This document shows, in pieces, positions 8,740-32,000 of a DNA stretch of 32,000 bases. The stretch is from NCBI RefSeq assembly GCF_002017875.1, contig NZ_MUFV01000005.1:75437-107436 (forward strand), read 5' to 3'. Each line of letters starts with the position of its first letter. Within the stretch, counting starts at the first letter, position 1. A program made the translations under genes and the position numbers. The stretch comes from Deinococcus sp. LM3 (GTDB lineage: Bacteria; Deinococcota; Deinococci; Deinococcales; Deinococcaceae). The notes beneath the pieces were generated by a model, which searched no databases, had not been told where the DNA came from, and saw only the letters and a program-made list of their open reading frames with translations.

Positions 8740-8771
8740 TCCACCTACAGTGCAAGAGTTGATCTGACTGT

Positions 8772-8807
8772 GCCACCTATTATAATATGCATATTATAAT
8801 AGGTGGC
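8772..8807. promoter_or_regulatory. Perfect 36-bp AT-rich palindrome carrying TATAAT boxes on both strands: divergent promoter/operator
   Basis: gccacctattataatatg|catattataataggtggc, with all 18 pairs checked base by base. TATAAT at 8781..8786 and 8795..8800, and their mirror images on the minus strand. It is centred in the 119-bp gap between the XRE start (8739) and the GTG at 8859. Confidence 0.7.
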
Positions 8808-8858
8808 GTGCAGGTGTGACGAATGTTTGGGTAGATCAGGACCAGTCAGGAGGGAAGA

Positions 8859-13418: not shown

Positions 13419-13459
13419 GCAACACCAGGGATGGCTCAGTACGTCGAAGCTAACATTGC

Positions 13460-13486
13460 GAGGTTCCGGCAAAGCGCCGGAACCTC
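13460..13486. terminator. Hairpin between convergent operons (candidate terminator)
   Basis: gaggttccggc-aaagc-gccggaacctc, a perfect 11-bp stem. No clear U-tract on either side. A second, weaker GC hairpin with a gtttat tail follows at about 13514-13535. Confidence 0.35.
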
Positions 13487-13559
13487 TCCATTCCCGCTCC
13501 AACGTACTTTTTCTGCTGCGCGCTCCGCGCGGTTTATCTACAAGATAAACGCAGTGTAC

Positions 13560-15545: not shown

Positions 15546-15547
15546 AC

Positions 15548-16252: not shown

Positions 16253-16291
16253 GTTGATTCTCCGAGGTTAATAGTGAATGGAAGGCTCTGA

Positions 16292-16316
16292 AGGCCTCTC
16301 CCTTCGGGAGAGGCCT
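16292..16316 (-). other. Perfect 10-bp stem-loop in the queE-queC intergenic spacer
   Basis: aggcctctcc-cttcg-ggagaggcct. No U-tract follows on either strand. Confidence 0.4.
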
Positions 16317-16377
16317 GTTCTACACCTGAACAACTAAGTCCTGCCTGAGAGATCACTCTCACTGCACCAACAGCCTT

Positions 16378-17070
16378 TCAGTACCCAAGTTCCGCGTTCC
16401 CACCGAGGGGGATGAGGCGCTTGTCACTGTGCGCGTCGAGGTCGTCGGCGCGGTACAGCTTGTGCATCTGGTACCCGGCCCGCAGGCGCGGGTTCTCCTT
16501 CACCGCCTGCGTGATGCCGTTCAGCACAGTCAGATCCCGCTCGCGGGCCCGGCTCCACTCCGGGTGCAGCCAGATCACCGCCCCGTCCGGCAGGCCGGTC
16601 AGGGTGTCCAGGCCCGCCTGAATATCACCGGGTTCGTGGACGATGATCTTCACCTCGTCCGCGAGTACCACGACTTCCGGCAGCGGGGGCTGCCCGAACG
16701 GTTTGGGCGACAGCGTCACCCAGTCCAGTTCACCCCGCAGCGGTGCGATCCCGCTCGTCTCGATGTGCACCCGGCGGCCCAGCGCGTGCAGGGCGTCCGT
16801 CAGGGGCGCGAGGTCGAACAGGATCGGCTCGCCCCCCGTGACCACCACCACCGCGCCCTCTGGACTCTCGGCCCGCACCACATCGGCCAGTTCATCGGCA
16901 CTCATGAGGGTCACGCCGTCCGGGCGGTAGTCGCGGTGCCACGTGCCGGCACTGTCGCACCAGGGGCAGGCCTGCGGGCAGCCGTACAGGCGGATGAAGT
17001 ACGCCGCGCGGCCCAGGTGAACCCCCTCGCCCTGCCAGGTGTAGAACCGCTCGTACACCGGGTACTTCAT
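16378..17070 (-). CDS. queE: 7-carboxy-7-deazaguanine synthase QueE (radical SAM)
   Basis: N-terminus YERFYTWQGEGVHLGRAAYFIRLYGCPQACPWCDS (CX14CX2C-type cluster motif). Typical QueE length (230 aa). Confidence 0.9.
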   Translation of the reverse strand: MKYPVYERFYTWQGEGVHLGRAAYFIRLYGCPQACPWCDSAGTWHRDYRPDGVTLMSADELADVVRAESPEGAVVVVTGGEPILFDLAPLTDALHALGRRVHIETSGIAPLRGELDWVTLSPKPFGQPPLPEVVVLADEVKIIVHEPGDIQAGLDTLTGLPDGAVIWLHPEWSRARERDLTVLNGITQAVKENPRLRAGYQMHKLYRADDLDAHSDKRLIPLGGNAELGY

Positions 17071-17211
17071 TGTTGCTCCGCTGGAATGGTTCGCCAGAAC
17101 CGTTCCAGTCGAGCGGATGTGAGAAGGAGCCCAGCGGATTCCGGGCGTGGAATTTGGACCTCGATGGGGTGCCGAGGTGCAAATGGAACAGACGGAATCC
17201 GGTTCACGCCC

Positions 17212-17622
17212 TCACTCCCAGTACTCGCAGGAGCTGTCGGGTGTCTCCCAGAGCGTCACGTGCAGGCGCAGGTCTGCGCCGTCGTCCCCGTCGGGCAGGT
17301 CGGCGCGCACGCGCTTCATGGTGTGGCGGTGAATGTACGCGGCGACGACCTCGGCGGTCGTGTCGTCCCCGAGTTCCGGGATGTCGTTCAGGTATGCGTG
17401 GTCCAGGCCGCCGGCGTCCACGTCCTTCTTCGCCCATTTGAGGGTCTTGAAGTCCGCGACCATGATGGCCCGCTTGACGTGCGCACTCGGGCGGAGTTTC
17501 TCACTGGTGAGTTCCAGCCGGACGCGGTACGTGTGCCCGTGCAGTCTCCCGCACGGCCCGTCGTAGCCGGTGATCACATGTGCCGAATCGAACGTGAACT
17601 CCGAACTCAGTTTCCAAGGCAT
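17212..17622 (-). CDS. queD: 6-carboxy-5,6,7,8-tetrahydropterin synthase QueD
   Basis: FTFDSAHVITGYDGPCGRLHGHTYRVRLEL, a PTPS-family His/Cys motif. 136 aa. Its start shares 1 nt with the yhhQ stop (TGATG). Confidence 0.9.
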   Translation of the reverse strand: MPWKLSSEFTFDSAHVITGYDGPCGRLHGHTYRVRLELTSEKLRPSAHVKRAIMVADFKTLKWAKKDVDAGGLDHAYLNDIPELGDDTTAEVVAAYIHRHTMKRVRADLPDGDDGADLRLHVTLWETPDSSCEYWE

Positions 17623-18257
17623 CAGCGGACTCCTGCGGGTGCGGTGGTGAGGGCGGGCTCCTGCGGCTCACTGACCTGGGTTCGCACCCAGCGAACCAGG
17701 GGAATAAGCAGAAGGCTGATCAGCATCTTCAGGATGATCTGCCCGAGCATCAGGTTCAGCAGGGGCGCGCCGGTCCCGGCAAAGGCCAGCGTGATGAACA
17801 CGATGGTATCCAGGGTGGTGCTCACGGCGTTCGACGCGATGACCTGCACGGTGACCCCACGGTGACGCAGACGCTCGAAGATCAGGGCGTCGAGGGCCGT
17901 GCTGATCAGGTACGCGGCCAGGCTCGCCAGGACCACGCGGACCGTGGAACCGAAGACCACCTGATAGGCGTCGTCCTGGAAGAATCCGGGTTTCGGAAGG
18001 GCATTGACGAGTAGACCGTAGGCGGCGAGCAGCGCGTTGGCGGCGAAACCGCCCCACAGGACCGCCTTGGCGGCCGTCCAGCCCCCCGCGGTGTGGATGG
18101 CGTCCCTAAGGGTGAAGGTCAGGGAGTACAGGAAGATCGCGCCGGGAAAGACCAGGGAGCCGAGCTGCACGAGGCGACCGGCGGTGACGTTACTGACGAG
18201 TTCCGCGCCGATGTAGACGGAGATCAGGATGGTCAGCAGGGTGGTGCGTTGAGTCAT
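17622..18257 (-). CDS. yhhQ: Queuosine-precursor transporter (YhhQ/DUF165, VUT family)
   Basis: 211-aa polytopic membrane protein. The pattern FPGAIFLYSLTFTLRDAIH is typical of YhhQ-type preQ0/preQ1 importers. Confidence 0.8.
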   Translation of the reverse strand: MTQRTTLLTILISVYIGAELVSNVTAGRLVQLGSLVFPGAIFLYSLTFTLRDAIHTAGGWTAAKAVLWGGFAANALLAAYGLLVNALPKPGFFQDDAYQVVFGSTVRVVLASLAAYLISTALDALIFERLRHRGVTVQVIASNAVSTTLDTIVFITLAFAGTGAPLLNLMLGQIILKMLISLLLIPLVRWVRTQVSEPQEPALTTAPAGVR

Positions 18258-18779
18258 GGGAAACCTTTCGGGTGAAGCGACTCCAGCGCGCGTGGGACGA
18301 TCCGGCCCGAATCGCCACGGGCCCCTCCAGCAGGAAGGGGAGTGACGAGAGGGCGGCGGATCCCAGGGGCCGGGAAGCCGGAGAGATCAGAGCAGCGTGA
18401 CGACGCGGCCGTGATGTTGATGTGCACACGTCAGTCGGGTGCCTGCCACCGTTCAACGGTGTGCAGGTCAGTCGGGGCTGACGTCGGGCGGAGCGTTCGT
18501 GGTCGCTCTAGCCGGTGGGTCCCTGAGGGGGGCAGCGCCCGGGCGCGAAACCGTCTCGTTTCGTGGCGGGGCGAGGTCCTGCGGGACCGTCAGGTGGGGC
18601 GCCGTGCGCCTCCCACCTGGAAGGAGGGGAGATCCAGGATACGCCGGAGTACTTGTTCATGGGAGCTCCTTGGGACCTGTGCGGCATTACAGGCCCGGGG
18701 GGTGGGCGCAGTCTGCGCCTGGCAGAGTCTTGCACATCCCTTCTGCCTGCGGGTAAGAACCCCCGGCAGGGTGAGGGGC

Positions 18780-19673
18780 TCACCGCTGCAAGGTGCGGGT
18801 GGTGAGCGTGCTGAAGCGGGCAGTGGGGAGTGGGAGGGACGCGCCGATGGCCGCCGCGAGGTTGCACAGGGCCAGGTGAACGCGTTCGTGCGGGGTGAGG
18901 TGGGCGTGCCGGACCTGCGGGGCCGAGTAGAGACGGCCGTCCGCGGCGTACTTCACGTAGGAACTGGAATCCACGCTGTCCACGCCGAGCCGCGAGACCC
19001 GCCCGACGTGGTCCGGGTGGCCGATCCCGAAGGCGTGGATGGGCAGGTCACCAGCTGCGGCGCGGACAGCCCGGATCACGTCGTCCACCATGTCTGGTTG
19101 GGACATGCGTAGGACGAGCCCCCCGATGGCGACTCCTTCGAATCCAGCCTCCCGGTACTCCTGCGCGAGCTCCGCGGCGGCCTGCGCGTCCCAGCCCTGC
19201 ACGACCCCGTACAGGGGCAGGTCGGTGCGGCGGCGGTTGTGCAGGGCCCACAGCGCGTTGGCGCGCGTCAGGGCGTGATAGCGCCGGGCGTCGCGGGTGG
19301 GCAGACCGGGGGGAATGAGCAGGTCCAGGGTGAAGCCGACGTCCGCGACGCGTTCCTGCAGTTCCAGGACGCTGCTGGGTGTTATGCGCCGACCCTGGCA
19401 GTCGATCACGCCGAGTCCCGCGCGGGTGCGGGTCACGGTGGCGGCCGTGAAGACACTGGCGAACCCGCCGGAGTCCACGAGCAACGGCACGCTCAGGTCC
19501 GGCGCTTCCCGCGCGTCTTGCAGGAAGAACGCGCTGACCATGACCGCGGGTGCGAGCCGGGGCAGGTAGGGGCGGATCAGGTCGTCGAGGGGGTACTTCT
19601 CGCCGAAGGTCGTGACGGGCACGAACGCGGGGAAGTGCAGGGGGCCTTTGCGAGTGTTCAGGGTGCGGGTCAT
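18780..19673 (-). CDS. dpdA: TGT-fold DNA/RNA transglycosylase, DpdA-like, paralog 3 (no Zn cysteine cluster)
   Basis: 297 aa. Motifs LLVDSGGFASV, GVAIGGLV, IHAFGIGHPD and GVDSVDSSSY. It contains only two Cys residues, so there is no CxCxxC motif. It heads the que/yhhQ gene string. Confidence 0.65.
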   Translation of the reverse strand: MTRTLNTRKGPLHFPAFVPVTTFGEKYPLDDLIRPYLPRLAPAVMVSAFFLQDAREAPDLSVPLLVDSGGFASVFTAATVTRTRAGLGVIDCQGRRITPSSVLELQERVADVGFTLDLLIPPGLPTRDARRYHALTRANALWALHNRRRTDLPLYGVVQGWDAQAAAELAQEYREAGFEGVAIGGLVLRMSQPDMVDDVIRAVRAAAGDLPIHAFGIGHPDHVGRVSRLGVDSVDSSSYVKYAADGRLYSAPQVRHAHLTPHERVHLALCNLAAAIGASLPLPTARFSTLTTRTLQR

Positions 19674-20078
19674 GCGTTCATCCAGAGGTGCTCGAAGGAC
19701 CAGTCGGGGGACGGGTCGTGGTTCAGGGCGGTGAGGTCGGCGAGCGCACGGCTACCCTGACGCGGTCATTGCTCGTTCAGGCCAAAGAACGCCTCGCTGA
19801 TCCTCATAGACTGGTCCTGTTCACGGATGGTTTTCTGTCTTCTGACATCTTTCAGTTTTAAGCCGTATGCTGGCGAGTGCCGTCCCAGACGAATAAAATC
19901 CGTTCCATTTCTCTTTCCAGCTCAAAAAGCCGCACCCAGCCGACACATTTCATCCTGACCTGACCAGCCAGTGCACCCCAGTCGGGCCAAGAGGTCTCCT
20001 CTTGGTCCGACGCTGTTTGGTCAAGGTGCTCAACATGGCAGAGGAAGAAGCAGGCCACACTCAGGCAGAGATAGCGTA

Positions 20079-20212
20079 ATACGGACTCCGATTGAATGGG
20101 CTGCAAAGCCCGTTCAATCCGAGCGAAGCGAGTGGGAGCAAAACGGGTTCCGGACGTGGAGCCGGCAATCCGGTGAAGTCCCGGATTGTCGGCGAAACAA
20201 ACGGAATCCGTA
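20079..20212 (-). repeat. 134-bp MITE-like small noncoding repeat, copy B (inverted relative to copy A)
   Basis: Its reverse complement aligns end to end with 1976..2109, with about 9 substitutions. Confidence 0.75.
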
Positions 20213-20362
20213 TCATTCGTCGTTGGGCTACCGAACACCGGATGAGTGGGCCAAGGAGGCCAGTGGCCGGCCTGCCGTCCCCATGTGCGGGCAGGACACC
20301 GCACATGCGGCCGTCATCCCGACCACTGGGTGAAAAAGGGAAGACGACTGTGTACGCTCGTT

Positions 20363-20741
20363 CTTGAATCGAGTCTCTACTCGAAAGTGTCCAAGCTTTG
20401 GGGTCAGGCCATACCCCTGAATAGAGGTCATTCGGAAATTGAGTGACAGGGGGCCGCACAGATTGGCGGCCCCCTCTGCCGATGCGGCTGAGCGATGCCC
20501 AATGGGCCGTCCTTGCACTTCTCATTCCACCCACCACCACCCGCGGTCGGCCACGCCCGTTCTGATCGCGAGGTCCTCGAAGGTATCCTCTGGGTTCTTC
20601 GCACGGGAGCGCAATGGGCTGCCCTGCCAAACCCCACCCAAGACCACCTTCCACGACCGGTTCCAGGAGTGGGTGCTGATGATGAACCCTGCTCTTGAGC
20701 CGGGTCTCTACTCGAAACTGTCCAAACTTTGGGGCCAGCCC
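20363..20741 (+). mobile_element. Degraded IS5-family (IS427-like) element remnant bounded by two direct 48-bp repeats
   Basis: 48-mers at 20363..20410 and 20694..20741 (cttgaNNcgNgtctctactcgaaaNtgtccaaNctttggggNcagNcc, about 85% identical) flank a frameshifted transposase N-terminal fragment. Confidence 0.55.
20482..20690 (+). pseudogene. IS5/IS427-group transposase OrfA N-terminal fragment (DUF4096-like), frameshifted and truncated
   Basis: Conserved segments are spread over three frames: MRLSDAQWAVLALLIPPTTTRGRPRP, then DREVLEGILWVLRTGAQWAALP, then PPKTTFHDRFQEWV. No catalytic DDE region follows. Confidence 0.6.
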
Positions 20742-20743
20742 AA

Positions 20744-21334
20744 TTAGACAGGTGGATGTAAAAGTCGCCGGGCCCGATCCATGGCTTGAACCAAAGGGTC
20801 TTGGTCACCGTGGCGCCGAAGCCACGGACCGGTTGGTCCGTGCGCGCCTTTCAATGCCTGAAGCCACAGAGTGCCGAGATAGTGCACAAGGACATGATCC
20901 AGATCCTCTGAAGGCGGTGCGGCGCTTATGAGCGAAGCAGATAGGCCTGAAGACTGATCCACCGGAGGCATAAATTCTTGCTCTGCGTCGTGCAGTAGAG
21001 TAAGACCTTGGTCTACAGCAGTTCCACGTTTCTCTGGAACTTCACCATGAGGCGGCAAGTGCACTTCCTGGACCCCCTGGGCGCTACGGTCTTCATACAG
21101 TCGGCTCAGCAGTTTGAGCGCGTCACGCACATCTACAGGTTTGGTACTGCACTGCACCACGGTCCAGGGCCCCAGTTGCCGTTCCTCAACTCCCGCCGCC
21201 AAGACGAAGGTCAGGCCCAGAGTGACTTCAGGGTAGGCCACAGGCAACGTCCCCACGTCGGCGTGTGTGAAGTTGTACTCCGCTTCAGGCAGGGAGGCCA
21301 TCTGCAACCGGCCAGCAAGTTCAAGAGCGTTCAT
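20744..21334 (-). CDS. Hypothetical protein (196 aa), last gene of the defence-like operon
   Basis: Its ATG overlaps the stop of the upstream helicase gene (ATGA at 21331-21334). No motif recognised. Its stop abuts the IS-remnant repeat. Confidence 0.55.
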   Translation of the reverse strand: MNALELAGRLQMASLPEAEYNFTHADVGTLPVAYPEVTLGLTFVLAAGVEERQLGPWTVVQCSTKPVDVRDALKLLSRLYEDRSAQGVQEVHLPPHGEVPEKRGTAVDQGLTLLHDAEQEFMPPVDQSSGLSASLISAAPPSEDLDHVLVHYLGTLWLQALKGAHGPTGPWLRRHGDQDPLVQAMDRARRLLHPPV

Positions 21335-23394
21335 AGCCCTTCCCGGATATCAACGCCACTGAGTTCTCGTAGTAACGGGGTCGCCTGTCCCTCTGTAGCG
21401 AGGAGGTACAACAACTCACCGCTACGGGTCATACCAACGTAGAAACGCATCCGCTCGCGTTCCATGAGAATGTCTTGCTCCTCACGCTCAGTTTCCGACC
21501 CCAAGGCGCCAAGGTGCTCAGCGTCTAAACCAACCAGCATGACCACAGGAAATTCCAAGCCTTTAGCAGTATGAATCGTCATCACTTTGACGCTTTCGCG
21601 CAGAACGTCCAGATCCTCCAGGACTGGATCCCAGTGGTCAGTGGGGATACCTTGCTTGGACAGGGCGTACGCGTATTCTTGGGCGAGCCCTTCCGTAGTG
21701 GCGATCACAGCAATATCACGCAAGCGTAAGAGGTTTTCTTCGCGAAATCGCGTGATTTCCTCAATGACGAAGCGTTTGATCTGGTGCTCCTCAACGAAGC
21801 GCATTAATATGGGACGTGGGCCACTGCGCTTAACTGACGCCATATCTATTAACTCACCGTGTTCCTTGAGATGCACATTTCGGGAGGCCAGATCAGCGGC
21901 GGTACGCACCACTTCGCGGGTATTGCGGTAATTGATTTTCAGCGCATACGAACGCCCCCGGACATCGAGGCCTACCTGCTTCCATGAAAACCCACGCGAG
22001 TACAAGCTCTGCGCGGCGTCTCCTAACACCAGGACGGTTTTGTGCTCAGTGCCTTGGCCCCGTGTGAGACGCTGCAACACCCGCAGTTCCAAGGGCGTGA
22101 GATCTTGCGCCTCGTCAACAATGACGTCGTCTACCACTTCGAGTTCGGGATGGTCAAGCAGGAGGCGGTACAGGCGGGTGACCGCGTCCCCCCAGTCCAT
22201 CAGGCCGCGTGCCTGCAAGTGAGCGTTGTAGGCACTTAGTACTTCCCAGACCACAGCGCGGGACAGTGGACTGAGTGCCTGCTTGCGCCCGTACCGAGGC
22301 GCTTGACGGTAAGCATCCATGTCCGGAAGCCCGAAGCCTTTTATCACTCGCTGAATTTCAGCGTAGAAGAACTCTGGAGCGCGCGCGAGCACCGCGGAGT
22401 GCCGCTGAGTTCTCACCTCATTGATCGCCTGCCGAATGAACTGCAGCGCCTGGTCGCGGTCCACGAGAGGCTGCTGGACTCCTGCCGCGTCCAGCATGCG
22501 CAGAGCCCATTGCCGGTAATCCTCAATGCGGAGGGTGGCTGGCAAGGTACCAGTCACTTCTTGCACCAGACTTCGGGTGACGCGTTGCAGTACGGGATTG
22601 TAAGTAATGAACAGTACCTGCCGTCCTGCCTGTGCGAGCCGGACAGCGCGGTGAATGCCTACGGTCGTCTTTCCACTGCCGGCCACACCTTTAAGCAGTG
22701 TGGCTCCAGTATGAATTCGGTTCACATGCTGTAGTTGCTCCTCGGCGAGCTCCAATAGAAGGTCCTGGATGCTGCCACGGGTGTACGCCTCCAGTTGCTC
22801 CAAAGACGCACGTTTGAATACACGGAAGGGATCCGCTAGGGGCTCGGCCGGGTCCGTCGCGAGCGCCAGAATCCACTCTTGGGTTTGTGCGGGCAGTCCG
22901 GGAAGTTTCAGGGCATCATCCAGGGTAGGCGCATCACGTAATGCGCGGGCTAATAGCGCGGGCGCTCCCAACAGCCGCAATTGATGCACAGTAAAGGCGC
23001 GCAGGGGAAAATCCGCGTCGCTTGGAGGATGGTTCCATGTGGTGGGCACCTGGAAGTCTGCCGTTTGTGGTGTGGCTGTGGCCTGCGGTTCAAGTTCCCA
23101 ACTCAGAAGGTCCTGGGTTCCAATATCCCGGGCGGTCAGTCGGTCGAAAACACTGTGAGGCACCACCCGCAGCAGCATGGGTTCACGGTTGCGTCCCCAC
23201 TGGAAGAGCATGCGCCAGTTGTCATTCACCCGGCAATACCAGGCGTCCATCAATTCCAGGCGGCGCACCTGCAGGCCGGTGGCCTGCGGATGCGTCAGAA
23301 GGGTTTTCACCGTACTGATGATGGCCGGCTGCATCGGCAACGCCGCGTTATGTTTCAGATCATCCAGGAAACGGGGGCTCACAAGCATCGTCAT
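21331..23394 (-). CDS. UvrD/Rep-type SF1 helicase with an N-terminal RelE/ParE-like domain
   Basis: Helicase motifs LLKGVAGSGKTTVG (I), VIVDEAQDL (II), KINYRNTREV, MTIHTAKGLEFPVVML and FYVGMTRSGELLYL. The first ~85 aa (...LELMDAWYCRVNDNWRMLFQWGRNREPMLLRVVPHSVF) follow the RelE/ParE toxin-fold pattern. Confidence 0.8.
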   Translation of the reverse strand: MTMLVSPRFLDDLKHNAALPMQPAIISTVKTLLTHPQATGLQVRRLELMDAWYCRVNDNWRMLFQWGRNREPMLLRVVPHSVFDRLTARDIGTQDLLSWELEPQATATPQTADFQVPTTWNHPPSDADFPLRAFTVHQLRLLGAPALLARALRDAPTLDDALKLPGLPAQTQEWILALATDPAEPLADPFRVFKRASLEQLEAYTRGSIQDLLLELAEEQLQHVNRIHTGATLLKGVAGSGKTTVGIHRAVRLAQAGRQVLFITYNPVLQRVTRSLVQEVTGTLPATLRIEDYRQWALRMLDAAGVQQPLVDRDQALQFIRQAINEVRTQRHSAVLARAPEFFYAEIQRVIKGFGLPDMDAYRQAPRYGRKQALSPLSRAVVWEVLSAYNAHLQARGLMDWGDAVTRLYRLLLDHPELEVVDDVIVDEAQDLTPLELRVLQRLTRGQGTEHKTVLVLGDAAQSLYSRGFSWKQVGLDVRGRSYALKINYRNTREVVRTAADLASRNVHLKEHGELIDMASVKRSGPRPILMRFVEEHQIKRFVIEEITRFREENLLRLRDIAVIATTEGLAQEYAYALSKQGIPTDHWDPVLEDLDVLRESVKVMTIHTAKGLEFPVVMLVGLDAEHLGALGSETEREEQDILMERERMRFYVGMTRSGELLYLLATEGQATPLLRELSGVDIREGL

Positions 23395-23404
23395 GATTTG
23401 ACCT

Positions 23405-24205
23405 CTACCGGTAGAAACCTGCTAGGGCATCCAGCAGGGGTTTGAATGCCGCTTCGTTGGCAACAGTCGGGTGATTGGCCAGGGCGAAGAAGTCGGCACT
23501 AGGTAAGGTGCGTTTCTTCGGAACCATGTCGCGATCCGTGAGGTCATACTGGTTACGTCGCCAACTGTGGGCCAGGAATTCTTCGGCCGCTGCTCTAAGC
23601 CCATCAAGAGGCTCATCGCTGCGTACCTCCGCGACCAACTCTGCGTTGTAGGCGAGGCCGCCGTTCGTGAAATTGGCACTGCCGAATAAAGCCCCCGACG
23701 GCAACCAAAGCAACTTGGCGTGTAGGGCGTCCCGGTACGACACCTGCGCGCCAAGTTGCGCCAGTTCCTCTGCGAACAGCACGGTGTCCGCGTGATTCAG
23801 AAATTCGCGTTTCAGCTCTGTACTGCGTTCCCTCAGGCCGCGCAGCACTTCATCCTGCAGGTCGAAGTCCATATCCTCGTTCGCCTGCACGCGCCGCACC
23901 TGCTCCGCCGTGAGTTGGTACTCCGCCAGGGCAGGTAAGGTCACCAGTTCATGCGGAGGTTTCACAATCACATGAATCAAGTGCTTCTGACCAAGCAGGC
24001 GCAGCAGGTCTTTCAGGGTGACGCTCTCCCGGTGTGTCCCGAAGACACTCCGGTACGGGCCCAACGACCGAATGTCGAACTCGACGTTTTTCAGCCACGG
24101 CGTAATCAGCCACACGTCACTCGGCGCGCAATCAAGCGCTTCAAGCATCAGGCGCACCATCTGGTTCTTCAGGCGGTCGGTCCGATCGGTTGCGTGGAAA
24201 ATCAC
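23405..24205 (-). CDS. PLD-superfamily (single HKD) nuclease, DrmC/DpdK/Nuc-like
   Basis: LHAKLLWLPSGALFGSANFTNGGL is an HxK...GSxN motif, and there is only one copy. 266 aa. The GTG start overlaps the upstream stop (GTGA at 24202-24205). Confidence 0.75.
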   Translation of the reverse strand: MIFHATDRTDRLKNQMVRLMLEALDCAPSDVWLITPWLKNVEFDIRSLGPYRSVFGTHRESVTLKDLLRLLGQKHLIHVIVKPPHELVTLPALAEYQLTAEQVRRVQANEDMDFDLQDEVLRGLRERSTELKREFLNHADTVLFAEELAQLGAQVSYRDALHAKLLWLPSGALFGSANFTNGGLAYNAELVAEVRSDEPLDGLRAAAEEFLAHSWRRNQYDLTDRDMVPKKRTLPSADFFALANHPTVANEAAFKPLLDALAGFYR

Positions 24206-27200
24206 AGCGCTTCCTGCCGGTACAACACAGTGCGCAAGGTTAGGTGCTCCGGATCAAACACGCGTCCCTGCTGCTGCAGCCCAGCCCTTGCAAAGGCGCG
24301 CACCAGTTGGTCACTGAGGTGGCCCTGATGCTCGTGCAGGACGAACCCTCCATGAGTGTCGGCCAGACGAACGACCTCCGCCACATCCAGATCCTCACCG
24401 CGAACGGTGATGGGCGCGGTCAGCACCTCGTGAGCGCGTTTAAGCAGCGTCCGCGACACGTTGTGGCGGGTTACGTCGATGTGGCCTTGGTCGCAGGACC
24501 CTGCCAAGCAAGCCGGGCAGGCATCCACGCAGGTAGACAGCGACCAACTTTCCACCTGGGCAAGGAAGCGGTCGTCGGCCGTCATCTCCTCCTCGCCCTC
24601 CTCTTCAACCAACACCTGTTGGAAATGCGTGCGGTACACCTGCAAGAGCCGCTTCAGGTGAGGTAGGTTCCGGTCCTCTTTCAAAAGGGTCAGGGCGTAC
24701 CCGGCGAGTTCCTGCGGCAAAGGCGTCCGGTGGAACCGGGCACTGAGCTCCGACTCCAGATCCAGCAGTTCCAGCAGCACATCGAGGTGCGCAAAGCGTT
24801 CCCCATTTACGTGCACCTCAGAGGTCAGCACGGTCGCCAGGTGCATCAGTTCAGGACTGTCGTCCCGCAACAGGCCGTCTGTCGCTTGAACCAGTGCGCG
24901 GCGCAGTCCGTCATCTTTCCGTTCGTGCGCGGGCAAGGCCAGCAACACCTGCACCTCGTGCGCAATGGGGGTGCGACGATTCGGTGCGAGCACTGCTTTA
25001 ACGAACTGCTGCTCTTCCGCCACGGGGCACTCGAGGGTATAGCGCCACCAAGCGGTGACGTGATGGCCTGTGCGCTCGCCTGCGGGATGTTCACCCATGA
25101 CCCGCGCGGCTGCGCGGGTGCTGCCCGCGCCATCCTGATTTCGCTCGTACACGTAGAACGCATGGTCCTGAGGGTCGTGTCCATGCGTGATATGCAACTG
25201 TGTGCCGGAGCCAATCTGGTGATGGTCGGCGCTGCCCTGCATCATAAACATGTTCCGTACCGCGTGCTTCAGCGAGTGAACGAGCGTGTCACGGACGTAC
25301 GCACTGACCTGCGCTTTGTTCTGAATGCGGGCGAACAACCGCCGCAGTTTCTCGTACGCCCGGTCGTCTTGCCACGTGACCCTGGCCTGCTCCAGGAAGT
25401 CCGGGTGGAGCGTGCGGTGGTCTGCCCAGTACCGCTGCGCGCCCCGCACCAGTGTCTGCCACCCGTCAGGATCCCGCAGAGCTGCTAGGAATTCCGGCCC
25501 GCTTTGCCCCTGCGCCCGTGCTTCTGCACGCATGGTGCACAACACGTCCGCCATCCGGCGTTGCGTGAAGGTGTTCAAGCCGTCTTCGACGCCTTCTGCC
25601 CACGGCTCACTTTTAAGGAGGTAGCGCAAGAACTGGTCCTGCAAATGCACTTGCGTGCGGACGTCGGCCCACTGCTGCTGCGCGATTGCCTGCACCGCCT
25701 GACTGAGTACCTGCGGATCGTACGGCACGCGAAGCCCTTCGGTGCATAAGTCGTACCCGTACAGTAGCGGCTCGCCGTCATGCTCACTCACGTACCGCAC
25801 CAGGTTGTGACCCCGGCCCGCCTGCGGGTCTTCACCTTGAGGGTGGCGTTTGTGTAACACAATCGTCGCTTCCGCCCCGTACTGCACTTCCCATGCAGCC
25901 AAACGCGAGCGCTGCCCGTCCTGCTCGCCGTAGTAATACTCCAGTGGTTGCACCAGGCTGCCGAACAAGGGCGGCACCGGGACGCGCAACCTCGCCTCAC
26001 CTAACGGGTGCACGGCCGAGAAAGACAACGGATAACTGTTGCTGTCAGGGGACACCACCCGCCATCCGTCCTCGAGCAGGGCTTGTTGAGCCTGTGCGGT
26101 AGCCTCTTCCCTCAACTGCCTCAACTCCACACTGCCGTCCGGACGTTTCCGGCCGTACGCCTGGGCCCCTTGCACTGGTGATTTGGGGTTGTTGGGGTCG
26201 AGCCGGCCAAATGACCACAACTCCAGATACCGCAGGCGGTAAAACCGCTTTGGCATCTCCCCATACAGGCGACGCACGCCAAGGGGCATGTACTGCTCGA
26301 AGGCGTCTCCCAGGCCACTGGCGGTTGGAAGGTCTTTGATCAGGGCCGGCTTGAATGGTCCATATCCTCCCCCTTCCCGTTTCTTATATCGCTCCATCGC
26401 CATGGCGTTTTGTACGATCACACCGTTGACCCGTACGGTCGGGGACCGCCAGTGCAGCAGGTGCGACGTGCCGTACCGCCTGGTGACGCGCCCAGCACCA
26501 AATTCGCTGAATGTGAGGGCAACGTCCTCCTTGACAAAGTTCCAGTCCATATCTGCCCTTGGCGGAGGCACCATCACCTGCACGACCGGCAGGTTGACAC
26601 TGCTGAACAGGTTCTCCGGGATGTCCGGGCACAGTTGCAGCAGACTTACTGGCCGGGTTCGAGTGGGCCGGTCTGCCCGGTGACGCACCTCCGGATCCAG
26701 CAGGGTCGCCTGGAACCACTCCCACAACGCTTGCCACGTACGGTACCCCTCCTGCTGCCGTAAGGTCGCTGCAATTACCCGTTCGTATCCATTCGTGATG
26801 AAGGGGTAGCGGGCGTCCAGGCGGGTCAACTCGCCAAAAATGGCGTCCAGGTGGTTCTGCAGCGGTGTGCCGACTGGCAGGGCATACCAGAGCCGGCCCG
26901 TCCGCTGGGTCAGTTCATCAAAGAGCAGGGCCACCGCATGGAAACGCTGAATAAAGTCATTCTCCGGATTCAGCGCTGGTTCGTAATCGGCCGGATCGGT
27001 GAGGGCTTCAGGATTTTGGAAGTAAAATGCGTCGCGGTAACTGCTGCGACTGAGCGTCACGGCTGTAATCGGCCGGTCGCTCAGATCCCGGCCTGCCCGG
27101 CCCTTTTTCTGAACAAACGAAGCGATGTTACTCGGGGCATGATGCTGCATGACGAACTGGATACTGGGGTCGTCATAACCTACCTCCAGACTGGTTGTGG

Positions 27201-29538
27201 CAAAGATGATGTCGCGGTTGAGCACCCGGCCGTCTTGGCCACCGCCGCTGAACACTGGATGGTCTGCCGAGGTTAGTGCCGTTGGCGCGGCGCCCACCCG
27301 AGTACGGCCTTCGTTGAACTGATGTGGATCCTGCGCTTCAAAGTACCAGTACTCCCCGTCCCGGAAAGCGGCACTGGCCTGCACGTCACCGGCAGGGGTC
27401 CTGAGACGAAGTGCTGCCAGATTCAACCGGCTCTCCGCGTCTCGGAACTCCACTGTCAGCTTCTTCAATTTCGAGATGCTGTCCTGGAAGATCAAGGTCC
27501 GGTGCTTGGCCGGCGTCTGTCCCTCGGCCGGACGGCGCACCATGTTGTGCGCGATGGTCATGATGGTCTGAATAGCCGCTGACGCGTCTCCAATCACTTT
27601 GCCGCGCGAGAACGATTCCGGACGAATAAACAGAAAGTAGTCGCGGCCCTGCGCAGGATCGTAATCCTCCGGTTGCGGTTCGATGGCGCTCACGCGGTAT
27701 TCCGGCACCCCGGTCAGCTTCGACCAGAACTGGCCAGGGCGACCAATCGTTGCACTCATACCGATCAGCAGGGGCGTCCTCCAGGTGGTAGCCTCATCCG
27801 CCGTGCCGCGGGCATAGCCGTACATGGCATTGTCAATTCGGTATTTCAGTCGGCGCAGCAAAGCCGCGATCTGCGATCCATGAATACCGCTGTACAGGTG
27901 AATTTCGTCCATTACGACTGCGCGCGGCGGGTGAAACGCCGGCCGCTCAGACCACTGGCGCGGCAATCCGAACACGCCTAACGCTTTCGGGTCCATCATC
28001 CAGCGGTGCAGCATCTCCGTCGTGATGATCAGTAGGTCAGGCGGCGCCTGCAGCACTGACTCCCGGGTGGCCTGGAACGTGTCGAGTTGCCAGCCCCCCA
28101 CGTCGAACCCTCCGTCTGAGGTCAAGGTGGCGCGGCCATCGGCCTGCACCTGCGCCAGCACTGGGGAACCGCCTGAGCCTGTGAAGTACGGCACCACATG
28201 CCGTTGCCCGTCCTCACTTCGGTCCCAGTGCCACTTGCGCTCGTTGTTCGGACCGCTGCCCTGCAGATCTCCCAGGGTCCCCGGCGTGTTGCCGAACACC
28301 ATTCCCACACTCAATGGCCGCAGGCCCAGGCCCTGGCCGGCCGGTCCGCGCATGGCACGATTGACGTGCGCCACATACTCACACAAGCGCTCCAACTGGT
28401 TCTTGGCGAGGTTCTGACGGGGGTAGACCAGCATGACTTTGACGCCCCGACGGTCATCCCGGATGATTTCCTCCAGCAGACCCGTGAGCAAGGGCAGCAG
28501 GGCCGCCTCCGTCTTGCCACTGCCGGTGTTTCCCGTGATGACGAACGCCCCACCGGTCTGCGTGAAGTAAGCGTCGGTCAGTTCCGTGAAGCTGCGCGCC
28601 TGAACGTTCGTGACGTCCACCTGGTCCAGAGGACGCCCCAGCGCACTCGAAAAGCCTTCCCCCAGCAGGCGTGTGGCTGCCCGCACCTTCCGTCCACGGT
28701 GGGTGCCCTGCACTCCGTCCAGCACCTCGCGGAAGCGCGTCTCCCGCCGGAGCCGTTCGCGGTCCTTAAACCGCACGCGCAGGCTCTGCACCAGATAAGG
28801 GGCTTGCGCTTCGTCCCCGTCCCGGAAGCGCTGCTTCACATTCTTCAGCAGGCGCACCATTTCACTGATGCGCGACCGGTATAGTCCGCTCCTGGGTTCT
28901 ACCACGTACCGTTTGGCCACTAGGGAGGCCAGCAGGCCTGGAATCGCCGAATCACCCAACTGGGCCCGCACTTCCTCACTCTGAGCTACCTCCTGAGCGG
29001 TGGTATACGTCTCATAAAGCCCAAAATTGATGCGCCGCTCCTCGATATTTTCCAGTGCGTTCAGCACCCTCACTTCATCAGCGGTCAACCCTTTCCCGGA
29101 TGCGCCCGTGGCGGGCACCTCCTCCCCTAAGGCCTGAACCTGCCGTACTCCCGGAGCCGCGGTGGAGGGAGCCGCCCCAGCGCCCAACCGCACTTCCCCT
29201 TTGGCTTCGTGGATCTGCCCTGAGGCGTGCAGAGGAAGCAGGACCGCCAGGAGAGCGTCCCGGGTATACACCCGGTCAAGGAGGCCACGGTTCACCGGAA
29301 GCAGGGTGAGGACGTTCGCTTCATTGAGTTTCAGGCGGACACTCGGAGAGAAGCCCTTCAACGTCTTCTGGTCATACCCTTCTAACAGCGGATCATCCGC
29401 CAGTTCAGTTCGCAAAGCGTGTACAGCAAGACCAGTTAATCTCGCCGCCTCAGACAGGAAAATCGAGCGGAACTTGGCGTCCCGGATGGCAGTAGCAAGC
29501 ATGTGACGAGACGCATCAGTAAGCACAAAAGACCTCAA
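24202..29538 (-). CDS. Giant DExH-box SF2 helicase fused to a C-terminal DUF1998/MrfA-type Zn-binding module (resembles a DrmA+DrmB fusion)
   Basis: 1778 aa. Helicase motifs ITGNTGSGKTEAALLPLL (I), VVMDEIHLY (II), GMSATIG (III), TTSLEVGYDD (V) and QKKGRAGRD (VI). The C-terminal region carries HSLKHAVRNMF...YVYERNQDGAGSTR and CVDACPACLAGSCDQGH. The exact start is uncertain (TTG at 29538, or an internal GTG or ATG). Confidence 0.8.
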   Translation of the reverse strand: MRSFVLTDASRHMLATAIRDAKFRSIFLSEAARLTGLAVHALRTELADDPLLEGYDQKTLKGFSPSVRLKLNEANVLTLLPVNRGLLDRVYTRDALLAVLLPLHASGQIHEAKGEVRLGAGAAPSTAAPGVRQVQALGEEVPATGASGKGLTADEVRVLNALENIEERRINFGLYETYTTAQEVAQSEEVRAQLGDSAIPGLLASLVAKRYVVEPRSGLYRSRISEMVRLLKNVKQRFRDGDEAQAPYLVQSLRVRFKDRERLRRETRFREVLDGVQGTHRGRKVRAATRLLGEGFSSALGRPLDQVDVTNVQARSFTELTDAYFTQTGGAFVITGNTGSGKTEAALLPLLTGLLEEIIRDDRRGVKVMLVYPRQNLAKNQLERLCEYVAHVNRAMRGPAGQGLGLRPLSVGMVFGNTPGTLGDLQGSGPNNERKWHWDRSEDGQRHVVPYFTGSGGSPVLAQVQADGRATLTSDGGFDVGGWQLDTFQATRESVLQAPPDLLIITTEMLHRWMMDPKALGVFGLPRQWSERPAFHPPRAVVMDEIHLYSGIHGSQIAALLRRLKYRIDNAMYGYARGTADEATTWRTPLLIGMSATIGRPGQFWSKLTGVPEYRVSAIEPQPEDYDPAQGRDYFLFIRPESFSRGKVIGDASAAIQTIMTIAHNMVRRPAEGQTPAKHRTLIFQDSISKLKKLTVEFRDAESRLNLAALRLRTPAGDVQASAAFRDGEYWYFEAQDPHQFNEGRTRVGAAPTALTSADHPVFSGGGQDGRVLNRDIIFATTSLEVGYDDPSIQFVMQHHAPSNIASFVQKKGRAGRDLSDRPITAVTLSRSSYRDAFYFQNPEALTDPADYEPALNPENDFIQRFHAVALLFDELTQRTGRLWYALPVGTPLQNHLDAIFGELTRLDARYPFITNGYERVIAATLRQQEGYRTWQALWEWFQATLLDPEVRHRADRPTRTRPVSLLQLCPDIPENLFSSVNLPVVQVMVPPPRADMDWNFVKEDVALTFSEFGAGRVTRRYGTSHLLHWRSPTVRVNGVIVQNAMAMERYKKREGGGYGPFKPALIKDLPTASGLGDAFEQYMPLGVRRLYGEMPKRFYRLRYLELWSFGRLDPNNPKSPVQGAQAYGRKRPDGSVELRQLREEATAQAQQALLEDGWRVVSPDSNSYPLSFSAVHPLGEARLRVPVPPLFGSLVQPLEYYYGEQDGQRSRLAAWEVQYGAEATIVLHKRHPQGEDPQAGRGHNLVRYVSEHDGEPLLYGYDLCTEGLRVPYDPQVLSQAVQAIAQQQWADVRTQVHLQDQFLRYLLKSEPWAEGVEDGLNTFTQRRMADVLCTMRAEARAQGQSGPEFLAALRDPDGWQTLVRGAQRYWADHRTLHPDFLEQARVTWQDDRAYEKLRRLFARIQNKAQVSAYVRDTLVHSLKHAVRNMFMMQGSADHHQIGSGTQLHITHGHDPQDHAFYVYERNQDGAGSTRAAARVMGEHPAGERTGHHVTAWWRYTLECPVAEEQQFVKAVLAPNRRTPIAHEVQVLLALPAHERKDDGLRRALVQATDGLLRDDSPELMHLATVLTSEVHVNGERFAHLDVLLELLDLESELSARFHRTPLPQELAGYALTLLKEDRNLPHLKRLLQVYRTHFQQVLVEEEGEEEMTADDRFLAQVESWSLSTCVDACPACLAGSCDQGHIDVTRHNVSRTLLKRAHEVLTAPITVRGEDLDVAEVVRLADTHGGFVLHEHQGHLSDQLVRAFARAGLQQQGRVFDPEHLTLRTVLYRQEAL

Positions 29539-29575
29539 CAGCGAAAGAAATGAGTGAGAACGGCAGCTTCGCGGT

Positions 29576-30280
29576 TTATTGCAGGCGAACCGTGAAGGCT
29601 GGCAGGAACCCGTGCTCCTGAAGCCAAGCCCACACCTCTGGGGTGAGGGCCGCGAGGTTGGCCTGGCCTTGAACCACGGCCTGTAAAAACGTCACCACGC
29701 CGGGCGGCAGGTGGGTGCCCACCAGGTCGGCTCCCAACCGGTCATACTCTGTAGCCAAGCCTTTGGCTTTGTGCGCCTGTTCCGCTGTGACCGGGAAAGT
29801 GCGCCGGAGTTGATCGTGCAGTTGGTACACCTGCCGCAGGGCGCTCGCCGCCGGCGCCAGGCCCGCCTGGCGCTCAAATACCGCCAGGACTGGCGCCGGT
29901 ACCGGCGGTTCGATGCTGGCGAGGTAGGTCTCCCAGGCCTCGCGGGCCGCGAAGGTCAAGTCGTCACTGGCCTTCTTGACGTTCCGCAGGGCCACCGAAA
30001 AATCGTTCTTAATCAGCGTTCCTGCGTCGACCTGCGCGCCTCTATGAACGAAAGCCACATTCCGCAACGCCGCGTCAACACTGGCTGGTAACGCCTCATT
30101 CGCCACCAGGCCGGCGGCCCGGAGCGTGCTCCACGCGAGTGAAGCGCCCTGCACCTGCCCCTTGACCGCCTGGAGTTGCTCCTGACGCGTCGTGTATTGC
30201 CGGATGCTCTCCTGCACGTCCGTGAGCTTGTGCAGGTCTTCGGCACTTTCCTTGAGCGCCTGGGCACGTTCCAACATCAT
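29576..30280 (-). CDS. Hypothetical protein (234 aa)
   Basis: Its ATG overlaps the stop of the upstream gene (ATGA at 30277-30280). It is helical and Ala/Leu-rich, with no motif recognised. Confidence 0.55.
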   Translation of the reverse strand: MMLERAQALKESAEDLHKLTDVQESIRQYTTRQEQLQAVKGQVQGASLAWSTLRAAGLVANEALPASVDAALRNVAFVHRGAQVDAGTLIKNDFSVALRNVKKASDDLTFAAREAWETYLASIEPPVPAPVLAVFERQAGLAPAASALRQVYQLHDQLRRTFPVTAEQAHKAKGLATEYDRLGADLVGTHLPPGVVTFLQAVVQGQANLAALTPEVWAWLQEHGFLPAFTVRLQ

Positions 30281-32000
30281 GCGGGTTCTCCTTGGGTTTG
30301 AACGCCCGACAAGGTCTCTTCGATGGACCGCAGGTCTTTCAATAAGATCTGCGCCACTTGAACCGCGCTGGCGTCCGGGGTGGCGATGGACGCGCGCTGA
30401 CGGGCGTACCGCAGGCTGTCATCCAGGACCTGGTTCAACTGCTTGACCACCTCTTCACTGCGCGCCGCGTCAGCCCAGGCAAAACTGGCCGCCGTGGTAA
30501 GGCGCCGCTCCAGGTCGGCGGCGTCGACGAGGCGCCGCGCGGCCTTGAGCAGACTGAGCAGGGGCAGGCGGTTAAACTGGCGCAGCAGTTGTGCCACCCC
30601 TTCTGGCGCCATGCTGCGCGGCAGTTGCAGCACGCCCGCTTCGCCCGCCGCGCGGAACGCTTCGTTCAAGGCAACAGCCGTCTCACTCAGTTGGTCGGCG
30701 CTGCCCAGGATCGATAGCACCTCCTGTTGCCAGCGGTCCGCTTCTTGCTGCGCCGAGACGCTGGCCGCCCGCCAGGCTTCAAACAGAGTGTTCCGGTCCT
30801 CGGCCAGGCCCAGCCGGTCATGCTCGGGAGGCTGCGCCCGAACAGCCGCCTGTTTTGCCGTGCTTTCAATCTGTTGTAGCAGCAGGGCCGCGTTGACCAG
30901 CCGCGCGGCGCCCCCTTTGCGGACGCCAGCAAATACCAGCAGTTGCCGGGCGGCTTTCGGATGCAGTCGGCGCACCTGTTCAAGTTGACGGCGCCAATCC
31001 AATGGCGCTTCAGCCGGCACTTCCGGCACAGTCTGCAGCATCGCGCCTATGACCCTCGGGTCTCGGTCTCCCACTTTGATGCGGCCAAGCGCGACGGCGC
31101 TCCAGTACAGCGTTTCGACGGCCACTGGCAGCACCGACGGGCGCGGACCAGTGGGGGACAATTCCACCCGGACGTACTGCGTCCACAGTTCCACTGCTTC
31201 CCGGAATCGCCACGCTGCATCGGGAATCTCGCTCGGCCACCGTCCCGTCTCCTTGAAGGTGTAATACGCACCCAGCGCCACCGCCACGTCCACCGGGCTC
31301 TGGCCTGGCAGGGGCAGGTTGAGCCGAACCGCTTCACGGCCCAGATTGAAGTTGTTCGTCTGCCCTTCGAAATAGATGCTCTCGGCAGACCACACACCAT
31401 CGTCTTTCAGCGCAACCTCATGCAGGTTCTCCGCTTCGAAAACGGCAAAATCACTGATTGCCTCATGAGCGAGTCGGCGCAGCTCCCGGGTGTGGGTTTG
31501 CGTAAGCGGCCGTCCACTCGCCCAGTTCTGCAGCGCCTGCAACAACGCAGGTGTGGCCGCTTTCTTTCGCTTTTTGTCGTCCGGGTCATCGGGCGTTCCT
31601 ATAAGCGGGCCGTCAAGCAGTGGCGGCGCCTCCCCTACCTGGGGAATCTGGAATGCGGCGTGCAGGCCTTCGGGTAGATTCTGCAACCGGGGCGGCACAG
31701 GACCCCACAGCCGCATCACCGCTTCGATACGGTCGGCTTCCTCGGCGTCGATTTGCAACTCTTCCAGGCGGGCTTTGTCGCCCAGAGGCAGTGACGCTAC
31801 GGTGACAGCCTTGCCATAGGTGTCTTGCACAGCCGGTGAAGGGAAGGCCGCATCTGGCAGTCGCTCCTGGGCGTCGCGCAACACATCACGCATGCCGCGC
31901 AGGAGGCCGCGGGGATTGAAGCCTTCCGGATTTTCGTGGTCCCCCACGATGTCAATCAGCCGGTTGTTAAACGGATACAGGCCTACCGGTCCCTCAGTTC
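30277..32000 (-). CDS. Hypothetical large protein; the 5' end runs off the right window edge
   Basis: The track starts it at the GTG at 31947. However, the same frame stays open to base 32000 (...TEGPVGLYPFNNRLIDIVGDHENPEGF...), so the true start is probably outside the window. No catalytic motif lies in the visible 574 codons. Confidence 0.6.
   Translation of the reverse strand, partial: TEGPVGLYPFNNRLIDIVGDHENPEGFNPRGLLRGMRDVLRDAQERLPDAAFPSPAVQDTYGKAVTVASLPLGDKARLEELQIDAEEADRIEAVMRLWGPVPPRLQNLPEGLHAAFQIPQVGEAPPLLDGPLIGTPDDPDDKKRKKAATPALLQALQNWASGRPLTQTHTRELRRLAHEAISDFAVFEAENLHEVALKDDGVWSAESIYFEGQTNNFNLGREAVRLNLPLPGQSPVDVAVALGAYYTFKETGRWPSEIPDAAWRFREAVELWTQYVRVELSPTGPRPSVLPVAVETLYWSAVALGRIKVGDRDPRVIGAMLQTVPEVPAEAPLDWRRQLEQVRRLHPKAARQLLVFAGVRKGGAARLVNAALLLQQIESTAKQAAVRAQPPEHDRLGLAEDRNTLFEAWRAASVSAQQEADRWQQEVLSILGSADQLSETAVALNEAFRAAGEAGVLQLPRSMAPEGVAQLLRQFNRLPLLSLLKAARRLVDAADLERRLTTAASFAWADAARSEEVVKQLNQVLDDSLRYARQRASIATPDASAVQVAQILLKDLRSIEETLSGVQTQGEPA

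Follow-up and report, generated by a model that had tools for sequence, protein, structure and literature searches.

What kind of defence system is encoded by the tightly coupled minus-strand genes at the far end of a 32,000-nucleotide stretch of Deinococcus sp. LM3 (contig NZ_MUFV01000005.1, positions 75,437 to 107,436; hereafter the window), where a helicase with a DUF1998 domain and a PLD nuclease stand beside 7-deazaguanine genes? A first-pass annotation, made from the letters alone, had taken helicase, DUF1998 and PLD for the core of DISARM and proposed a DISARM-like effector keyed to deazaguanine rather than to methylation, adding as a side remark that dpd clusters also carry helicases and a PLD-like protein. 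The side remark proved to be the correct lead. Judging by homology and synteny, it is very likely that the operon and the adjoining modification module make up a Deinococcota-type Dpd (7-deazapurine in DNA) restriction-modification system, probably plasmid-borne. The proposed novelty thereby falls away, since it amounts to the Dpd system, known since 2016 (PMC5699537, PMC10164549). The main value of our analysis is this correction, Dpd and not methylase-free DISARM, and in later scans the combination of helicase, DUF1998 and PLD beside TGT/que genes is to be recognised as Dpd.

The dPreQ0 and dADG of Salmonella Montevideo DNA are the work of dpdA, dpdB and dpdC (PMC10164549; PMC5699537), and restriction comes from dpdD to dpdK, the roles of the single proteins being unknown (PMC10164549). 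The YprA helicase family includes DpdJ, the DrmAB proteins of DISARM and Druantia's DruE, and Dpd and DISARM fall in one of its clades (bioRxiv 10.1101/2025.09.15.676423). A survey anchored on dpdAB, which covered 37,198 dpd windows of which 2,335 were unique, found them in eight phyla, Deinococcota not among them (PMC12235509). No description of a Dpd system in Deinococcus was found in the literature searched, and a search for Dpd-like entries of Deinococcus in the part of the YprA paper's supplement covered here gave ARMADA type I entries only.

The continuity of the operon and its synteny can be read directly from the data. All six minus-strand open reading frames (ORFs) were present in the window, joined by an ATGA overlap (dpdH to dpdI), a 37-nucleotide (nt) gap (dpdI to dpdJ), a GTGA overlap (dpdJ to dpdK), a 10-nt gap (dpdK to the next helicase gene) and another ATGA overlap (that helicase gene to the 196-amino-acid (aa) ORF), which bears out the earlier description of ATGA/GTGA overlaps and gaps of 37 nt or less. 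The count of six did not hold. The exact DpdJ sequence also occurs on a 17.9-kb metagenomic contig (L002) from an independent sample (SRR12037602), which is 99.8% identical to window positions 20382-32000, carries like ORFs and reaches 6.25 kb past base 32000. There dpdG, dpdF and dpdE continue the operon upstream, so that it comprises at least nine genes (dpdE-F-G-H-I-J-K, a RelE-UvrD fusion gene and the 196-aa ORF), the six-gene stretch being its distal part. The gene order is shared with three other Deinococcus genomes at 31-65% amino-acid identity, and its J-K-helicase part with Calidithermus at 39-51% identity; because the order recurs in this way, the ORFs are real genes and not chance readings. 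A terminator scan found no minus-strand terminator 3' of the last operon gene, a tRNA scan found no tRNA, and an Rfam scan found no Rfam family, and therefore no preQ1 riboswitch.

Gene identities, by profile HMM, and conserved motifs are likewise shown by the data. On the strength of PADLOC and NCBIfam matches, the two upstream "unknowns" are DpdH and DpdI and the supposed DISARM core is DpdJ and DpdK. The earlier reading of the genes as a defence operon holds. The protein of more than 574 aa for which no function had been offered is indeed an open frame running to the window edge, and it is DpdH, a BrxC-like P-loop ATPase, of which the fragment in the window already matches DpdH in NCBIfam (1.1e-50) and PADLOC (4.9e-8). 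The 234-aa protein can no longer be called unknown, as it matches DpdI in NCBIfam (3e-14, aligned end to end over positions 3-239 of 239) and in PADLOC (7e-5), and its gene lies between dpdH and dpdJ as it does in the canonical locus (L001), whose order G-H-I-J-K is the order at the present locus. Pfam gave no match for the DpdH fragment, DpdI or the 196-aa ORF; an exact-sequence look-up of DpdI returned no record, a genome-collection scan with the DpdH fragment gave 425 pattern matches of which 0 were confirmed, and a word-based homologue search with the same fragment returned two distant matches and no others.

The 1778-aa protein matches DpdJ in PADLOC (6.3e-134) with 445.8 bits, against 93 bits for DruE and 59.6 bits for DrmA. 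Pfam finds DEAD, Helicase_C and a weak MZB/DUF1998 (MZB 21.2 bits), and the motifs GNTGSGKT (Walker A, at 336), DEIH (at 544) and TCVDACPAC (at 1669) are intact. It belongs to a subfamily of about 1610-1790 aa whose members are 40-58% identical to each other and in which all of 36 members share C1504, C1670, C1674 and C1677, and 33 of them also have C1682; all five cysteines are absent from the canonical 1478-aa DpdJ of L001. The earlier call of a DExH helicase with DUF1998 is thus sound, and the gene is a dpdJ variant, encoding a predicted YprA-family DExH helicase with a retained DUF1998/MZB cysteine cluster. The 266-aa protein, correctly called a PLD nuclease (Pfam PLDc_2 1.6e-4; HAK at 162, GSAN at 175), matches DpdK in NCBIfam (1.3e-12) and PADLOC (4.5e-12, 44 bits), against 1.4e-4 and 19.6 bits for DrmC, which is of the same superfamily but the poorer assignment. 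DpdK, of the single-HKD PLD family, is likely the nuclease of the restriction machinery, and having a single HKD motif it is probably a dimer. At the other end of the operon, the C-terminal half of DpdE scores 412.6 bits, against 66.7 bits for DrmD. The comparison of Drm and Dpd models that the first-pass annotation had called for therefore came out on the side of Dpd, and of its DISARM core the kinship through the YprA family stands, the genes themselves being dpdJ and dpdK.

As to the self-mark, its observation that no methyltransferase is visible was extended: Pfam, PADLOC and NCBIfam scans found no methyltransferase domain in the scanned window ORFs, and none lies in the 6.25 kb past base 32000. 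The drmMI or drmMII gene just beyond that base, which would have made this a standard DISARM locus, was looked for on L002, and the extension is without a methyltransferase. What does stand alongside the operon is a module with a TGT paralogue, a DUF6884-TGT fusion, QueC, QueD, QueE and a YhhQ-type transporter (Table 1), which appears to be the matching modification half. The earlier candidate for the self-mark, 7-deazaguanine, is retained, and it is almost certainly the mark.

Table 1. Coordinates and profile matches of the operon, its upstream extension and the neighbouring module (positions are those of the window; aa, amino acids)
Feature	Position	Strand	Matches and remarks
DpdE on L002, C-terminal 553 aa			412.6 bits; cutoff 500 applies to full length
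DpdF on L002			NCBIfam 857.4 bits, cutoff 550
DpdG on L002			NCBIfam 80.2 bits, cutoff 80
DpdH, full length on L002, 1010 aa			NCBIfam 611.5 bits, cutoff 450; PADLOC 1.3e-121
dpdH, 3' part	30277-32000	minus	frame open through base 31998, 573 codons in window
234-aa ORF (dpdI)	29576-30280	minus	
1778-aa helicase ORF (dpdJ)	24202-29538	minus	
266-aa PLD ORF (dpdK)	23405-24205	minus	
687-aa helicase ORF	21331-23394	minus	
196-aa ORF	20744-21334	minus	
IS/repeat fragments between restriction operon and modification module	20080-20743	none	short matches, 84-96%
TGT paralogue, 297 aa	18780-19673	minus	Pfam TGT 9.4e-24; PADLOC DpdA 1.8e-14
YhhQ-type transporter	17622-18257	minus	Vut_1 1.6e-33, 116.7 bits; TIGR00697 (queuosine precursor transporter) 2.7e-23
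QueD	17212-17622	minus	PTPS 6.6e-29, 100.8 bits
QueE	16378-17070	minus	Radical_SAM 2.6e-9, 37.9 bits
QueC	15548-16252	minus	QueC 1e-70, 237.9 bits
DpdC-like DUF6884 + TGT/DpdA-like fusion, 661 aa	13560-15545	minus	DUF6884 39.2 bits (cutoff 30), TGT 33.6
Second-module TGT-like, 322 aa	8859-9827	plus	weak DpdA 1.5e-5
Second-module DpdG-like, 262 aa	9737-10525	plus	weak DpdG 3.2e-9
Second-module DpdH-like P-loop protein, 994 aa	10434-13418	plus	weak DpdH 6.9e-11

Within the module, the 297-aa TGT paralogue is a candidate DpdA-type DNA transglycosylase. The 661-aa fusion, with DUF6884 as its N-terminal part, also matches DpdC (3.4e-6) and DpdA (6.8e-10) in PADLOC, and D. taeanensis (WP_225524866.1) and Calidithermus (708 aa) likewise carry it next to their restriction genes. 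Pfam TGT scores of 84.6 and 33.6 bits both exceed the cutoff of 26.3. The second module, a triple of TGT-like, DpdG-like and DpdH-like genes, bears a remote similarity to the 297-aa TGT and to the DpdG and DpdH of the operon; it is conserved beside Dpd-type genes in D. taeanensis and Calidithermus, and two to three of its members occur near distant DpdJ-like genes in a Clostridiales metagenome-assembled genome (MAG; L065) and a Chloroflexales genome (L082). In Salmonella the DpdB ATPase is needed for preQ0 insertion (PMC10164549), and the second triple may take over the part of that missing ATPase in modifying DNA. By tblastn, about 80% of the DUF6884-TGT protein was also matched in loci of Coleofasciculus, Scytonema and Chamaesiphon, which suggests that the fusion occurs in cyanobacteria as well.

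The gene that follows dpdK may add another component to the system. Its 687-aa product had been described as a RelE-like/UvrD-like helicase, and UvrD domains, PDB profile, structural model and Foldseek agree with that description. The helicase part matches Pfam UvrD_C (8.7e-24) and UvrD-helicase (5.1e-14) and PADLOC GajB (8.9e-30), and bears GSGKT at 239 and DEAQD at 427. A profile of the first 92 residues matches toxins in the PDB, namely the H. pylori HP0894 type (1.9e-7), YoeB (1.6e-4) and also RelK, RelE and YafQ; Pfam gave for the N-terminal domain alone a HigB-like match only, sub-threshold at 18.9 bits. Single-sequence AlphaFold of the whole protein was unusable (pLDDT 38), and an alignment-based AlphaFold2 model of the RelE domain (about aa 1-90; pLDDT 94) was used instead, which Foldseek superposes on YoeB, YafQ and RelK at TM 0.70-0.72. 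Across the RelE-UvrD fusion family R61 is invariant and H80 nearly so. The protein is thus modelled as a RelE/YoeB/YafQ fold joined to a UvrD/GajB-like superfamily 1 (SF1) helicase, an arrangement also seen in ArmD (the product of the fourth ARMADA type II gene), which likewise combines a RelE-like part with a GajB-like helicase (bioRxiv 10.1101/2025.09.15.676423). The Walker A-Walker B spacing is 185 residues here versus 188 in ArmD. ArmD is required for ARMADA II defence, its Walker A lysine being essential (bioRxiv 10.1101/2025.09.15.676423), and the ArmD-type protein has so far been described as a component of methylation-based ARMADA type II only.

A relative of the RelE-UvrD protein with 37% identity lies in an unrelated BREX-like island (L090, JGI 3300037043 contig, 3125-22094) together with an Eco57I/PglX-like methylase, an HSP70-like protein, a 1979-aa multi-helicase protein and two BrxC/BrxD-like proteins; another relative, at 35% identity, is without defence context. 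The occurrence in the former island suggests that the fusion serves several defence systems as a portable accessory, and it looks like a mobile accessory of helicase-based defence islands. The 196-aa ORF remains, as the first-pass annotation had it, a protein without assignment, with no match in Pfam, PADLOC, NCBIfam or PDB profile searches and 6 relatives at E<=1e-10 among 1.84 billion representative proteins. A resemblance of its "AYPE..GL" motif to Vsr/DUF559 nucleases was considered, found no support in the profile searches and was dropped.

How far this arrangement extends was followed in a census of 78 genome loci with DpdJ relatives, plus the annotated D. taeanensis plasmid. A RelE-UvrD gene after dpdK was confined to Deinococcota, in five loci: the present one, a D. 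hopiensis MAG, D. rhizophilus, D. taeanensis p_TS293_6 and Calidithermus chliarophilus. The 196-aa-type orphan was confined to Deinococcus loci, standing 3' of the helicase gene in the D. hopiensis MAG, D. rhizophilus and D. taeanensis and not in Calidithermus, and the order E-F-G-H-I-J-K-helicase-orphan is that of the D. hopiensis MAG, D. rhizophilus and the D. taeanensis plasmid. On this syntenic plasmid, where PGAP names dpdE, dpdF and dpdH, the genes run from an HTH regulator through a second triple, a WYL gene and the DUF6884-TGT gene to dpdE-F-G-H-I, a split dpdJ, the PLD gene, the helicase gene, a 178-aa ORF and IS6; no methylase lies within or adjoining the cluster, and a 1.8-kb gap 5' of dpdE is without a plausible gene. 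In Calidithermus, dpdJ-dpdK-helicase is divergent from the second triple and flanked by YhhQ, DUF6884-TGT and QueCED; a sequence look-up of its DpdJ (P0009) returned no record, and the locus was found via its helicase. Other members of the DpdJ subfamily, in Gemmatimonadetes, Gemmataceae, Coleofasciculus and Salinivenus, lie in dpdJ-dpdK loci that lack the helicase gene.

Among the DpdJ relatives, those of 2084-2268 aa (P0040, P0042-P0048), with the alphaproteobacterium Brevundimonas as the named example, carry the SF1-helicase Pfam domains AAA_11/AAA_12 besides the DpdJ core and are a further architectural subtype of DpdJ. The PADLOC DpdJ model PDLC02895 (2112 positions) aligns to the window protein from profile position 697 on, which suggests that the extra SF1 domain is N-terminal.

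Set beside the Dpd systems of Salmonella Montevideo and other bacteria, the locus has the same dpdE-F-G-H-I-J-K set and order, a PLD nuclease directly after a YprA-type helicase, no DNA methyltransferase, a TGT paralogue, a DUF6884 (DpdC) domain, clustered preQ0 genes and a YhhQ transporter. It departs from them in the lack of any detected DpdB or DpdD, in the fusion of DpdC to TGT, and in having three TGT paralogues and a second TGT-like/DpdG-like/DpdH-like module. In addition, its DpdJ is about 300 aa longer, keeps the DUF1998 cysteines and has a C-terminal half off the canonical profile, its DpdK has 266 aa versus about 170 aa, and two extra coupled genes follow dpdK.

Several results weigh against assigning the locus to Dpd. 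In NCBIfam, three of the restriction proteins fall short of their cutoffs, namely DpdI (53.6 bits; equivalog cutoff 150), DpdK (47.6; cutoff 100) and DpdJ (372.5, 4.8e-111; cutoff 800), the last aligning over aa 159-1036 to the first 855 of the 1482 profile positions and no more; so do the three TGT-like ORFs as DpdA (57.9 for the 297-aa paralogue, then 43.8 and 24.1 bits; cutoff 200). For DpdI, DpdJ and DpdK the Dpd models give the best or sole matches and the gene order agrees, so that they belong to Dpd at the level of the family, though not of the equivalog. No DpdB/ParB/DndB was found in the scanned window ORFs (some small ORFs were unscanned), FolE was not found in the window, and tblastn with one query, the canonical DpdD of L001, gave no match at E<=1e-3 in the window or L002. 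An insertion sequence (IS) fragment divides the restriction and modification halves, and in D. taeanensis dpdJ consists of two ORFs of 1027 and 736 aa (L088 13890-19207, NZ_CP083460.1), being either split or frameshifted. No DpdB is annotated in the D. taeanensis region viewed, and the L001 DpdD query was also unmatched in the D. taeanensis, D. rhizophilus, D. hopiensis and Calidithermus loci.

For the Dpd system favoured here, we infer the biochemical steps, the dependence of restriction on the mark and the roles of the two extra genes as follows. preQ0 would be supplied by QueD/QueE/QueC synthesis or by YhhQ import, a TGT-family DpdA-like enzyme would swap guanine in DNA for preQ0, and the fused DUF6884 (DpdC-like) domain would probably turn preQ0 into the amide form (ADG). 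The DpdE-K machinery, consisting of the SNF2 helicase DpdE, the RecQ-like DpdF, the BrxC-like ATPase DpdH with DpdG and DpdI, the YprA helicase DpdJ and the PLD protein DpdK, would translocate on DNA, survey it and degrade what is unmarked. The RelE-UvrD protein and the orphan would be lineage-specific additions coupled to dpdK, the former most likely, by analogy with ArmD, an extra motor or effector subunit of the restriction complex.

It is a more tentative proposal, to which we give somewhat less than even confidence, that the locus represents a Deinococcota subtype of Dpd that does without DpdB and DpdD, in which the DpdC-DpdA fusion carries out the modification, perhaps helped by the second module, and the RelE-UvrD protein has been recruited into the restriction complex. 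If true, the ArmD-type protein would be a portable effector or sensor for YprA-helicase defence, whatever the epigenetic mark, and the locus would be a bacterial bridge between Dpd and ARMADA; the ArmD-like protein may even be a general accessory of YprA-helicase defence systems. With no DpdB or DpdD found, a DpdC-DpdA fusion, an ancestral DpdJ zinc cluster and an ArmD-like helicase, such a naturally occurring variant could help to establish which components of deazaguanine-based self/non-self discrimination form its minimum and which are modular.

The alternative that survives best, unlikely as we hold it to be, is that the locus forms a distinct hybrid class, the bacterial counterpart of BRIGADE/ARMADA, which is defined by the RelE-UvrD gene and the second triple and merely shares parts with Dpd. 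The last gene does have the RelE-like plus GajB/UvrD-like make-up of ARMADA type II, a likeness of architecture only and not of direct alignment to ArmD, and the genes ahead of it encode a YprA-family helicase system with a BrxHII-like SNF2 helicase among its parts; this last gene is tightly coupled after dpdK, an arrangement conserved in the five Deinococcota loci, and in Calidithermus the J-K-helicase part, divergent from the second triple, is not preceded by dpdG-H-I. dpdB and dpdD are absent from the scans. The published account of BRIGADE, moreover, presents it as a hybrid of Dpd and ARMADA that holds a deazaguanine cluster along with a PLD nuclease and is known from halophilic archaea only (bioRxiv 10.1101/2025.09.15.676423); it resembles the present locus in its deazaguanine cluster, DpdG, DpdH/I-like genes and PLD nuclease together with ARMADA-related parts. 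The ARMADA-related part, however, is the ArmD-like gene here and a YprA helicase in BRIGADE, where two YprA helicases occur, one or both of them ARMADA-like, and the hosts are haloarchaea, whereas a single YprA helicase was found in the window and L002, Dpd-type and bacterial. Membership of BRIGADE was accordingly rejected on the number and type of helicases. Unlike ARMADA type II, the locus has no PglX-like (ArmB) methylase, its YprA helicase is not of the ARMADA clade to which ArmC belongs, and its PLD nuclease is separate, not a C-terminal fusion to the YprA helicase. The haloarchaeal homologue is a very remote one, 25% identical across 30% of the protein, and DpdE, F, G and H reach or approach the Dpd equivalog cutoffs.

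Less probable still, indeed very improbable, is that we are looking at a decaying or inactive remnant, a horizontally acquired plasmid Dpd island disrupted by IS elements and no longer functional. The IS fragments, the ParA gene, AbiE-like pair and other mobile-element hallmarks nearby, and the missing dpdB and dpdD would suit such a remnant, and some copies may be decaying, given the split dpdJ of D. taeanensis. In the window, however, the operon ORFs are intact, DpdJ, DpdK and the UvrD helicase keep the catalytic motifs that were checked, and the coupling overlaps are preserved; the 99.8%-identical copy from the independent sample has the same ORFs, and the order has been kept across species at 31-65% protein identity, which indicates purifying selection.

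Least probable of all is a DISARM-like system that lost or never had its methyltransferase and took deazaguanine as its mark, since, for all that a YprA-family helicase with DUF1998 from the clade shared by Dpd and DISARM, a PLD nuclease and an SNF2 helicase partner are present and weak DrmA, DrmC and DrmD matches do exist, the scores of the Drm models are 5-8 times lower than those of the Dpd models where helicases are concerned and about half as high for the PLD nuclease, a single gene encodes helicase and DUF1998 in place of the pair DrmA plus DrmB, the Dpd-specific DpdF, DpdG, DpdH and DpdI have no DISARM counterparts, and no DrmMI or DrmMII occurs in the scanned ORFs, in the extension or beside D. 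taeanensis dpdE, on which grounds membership of DISARM was rejected.

Turning to the genomic setting, the repeat stretch that separates operon and module consists of three short matches (about 20079-20216, 20213-20411 and 20679-20742) to an IS3 transposase and other repeats of Deinococcus plasmids, and L002 breaks inside it, at window position 20382. A megablast of window positions 20000-32000 against plasmids gave IS/repeat matches to Deinococcus plasmids only. Because of these matches, of a ParA gene and AbiE-like pair in the window, and of the fact that the closest annotated relative of the locus is on a 78.7-kb plasmid (that of D. taeanensis), the locus probably lies on a Deinococcus plasmid.

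Farther off, a winged helix-turn-helix protein (5733-7027, plus strand) is followed by a weak AbiEii-like nucleotidyltransferase (7376-8047, plus strand) and then by the ParA-family partition ATPase; the first two are possibly a type IV toxin-antitoxin or abortive-infection pair. Beside this pair and ParA, positions 3900-5730 hold no ORF of at least 100 aa and no Rfam or tRNA match, and their GC content is 0.51-0.57 versus about 0.55-0.68 elsewhere in the window. Two direct repeats of 300 nt, 93% identical, are found there at 4682-4981 and 5067-5366 (385-nt spacing), and the region may be a plasmid origin/iteron region or a non-coding RNA locus.

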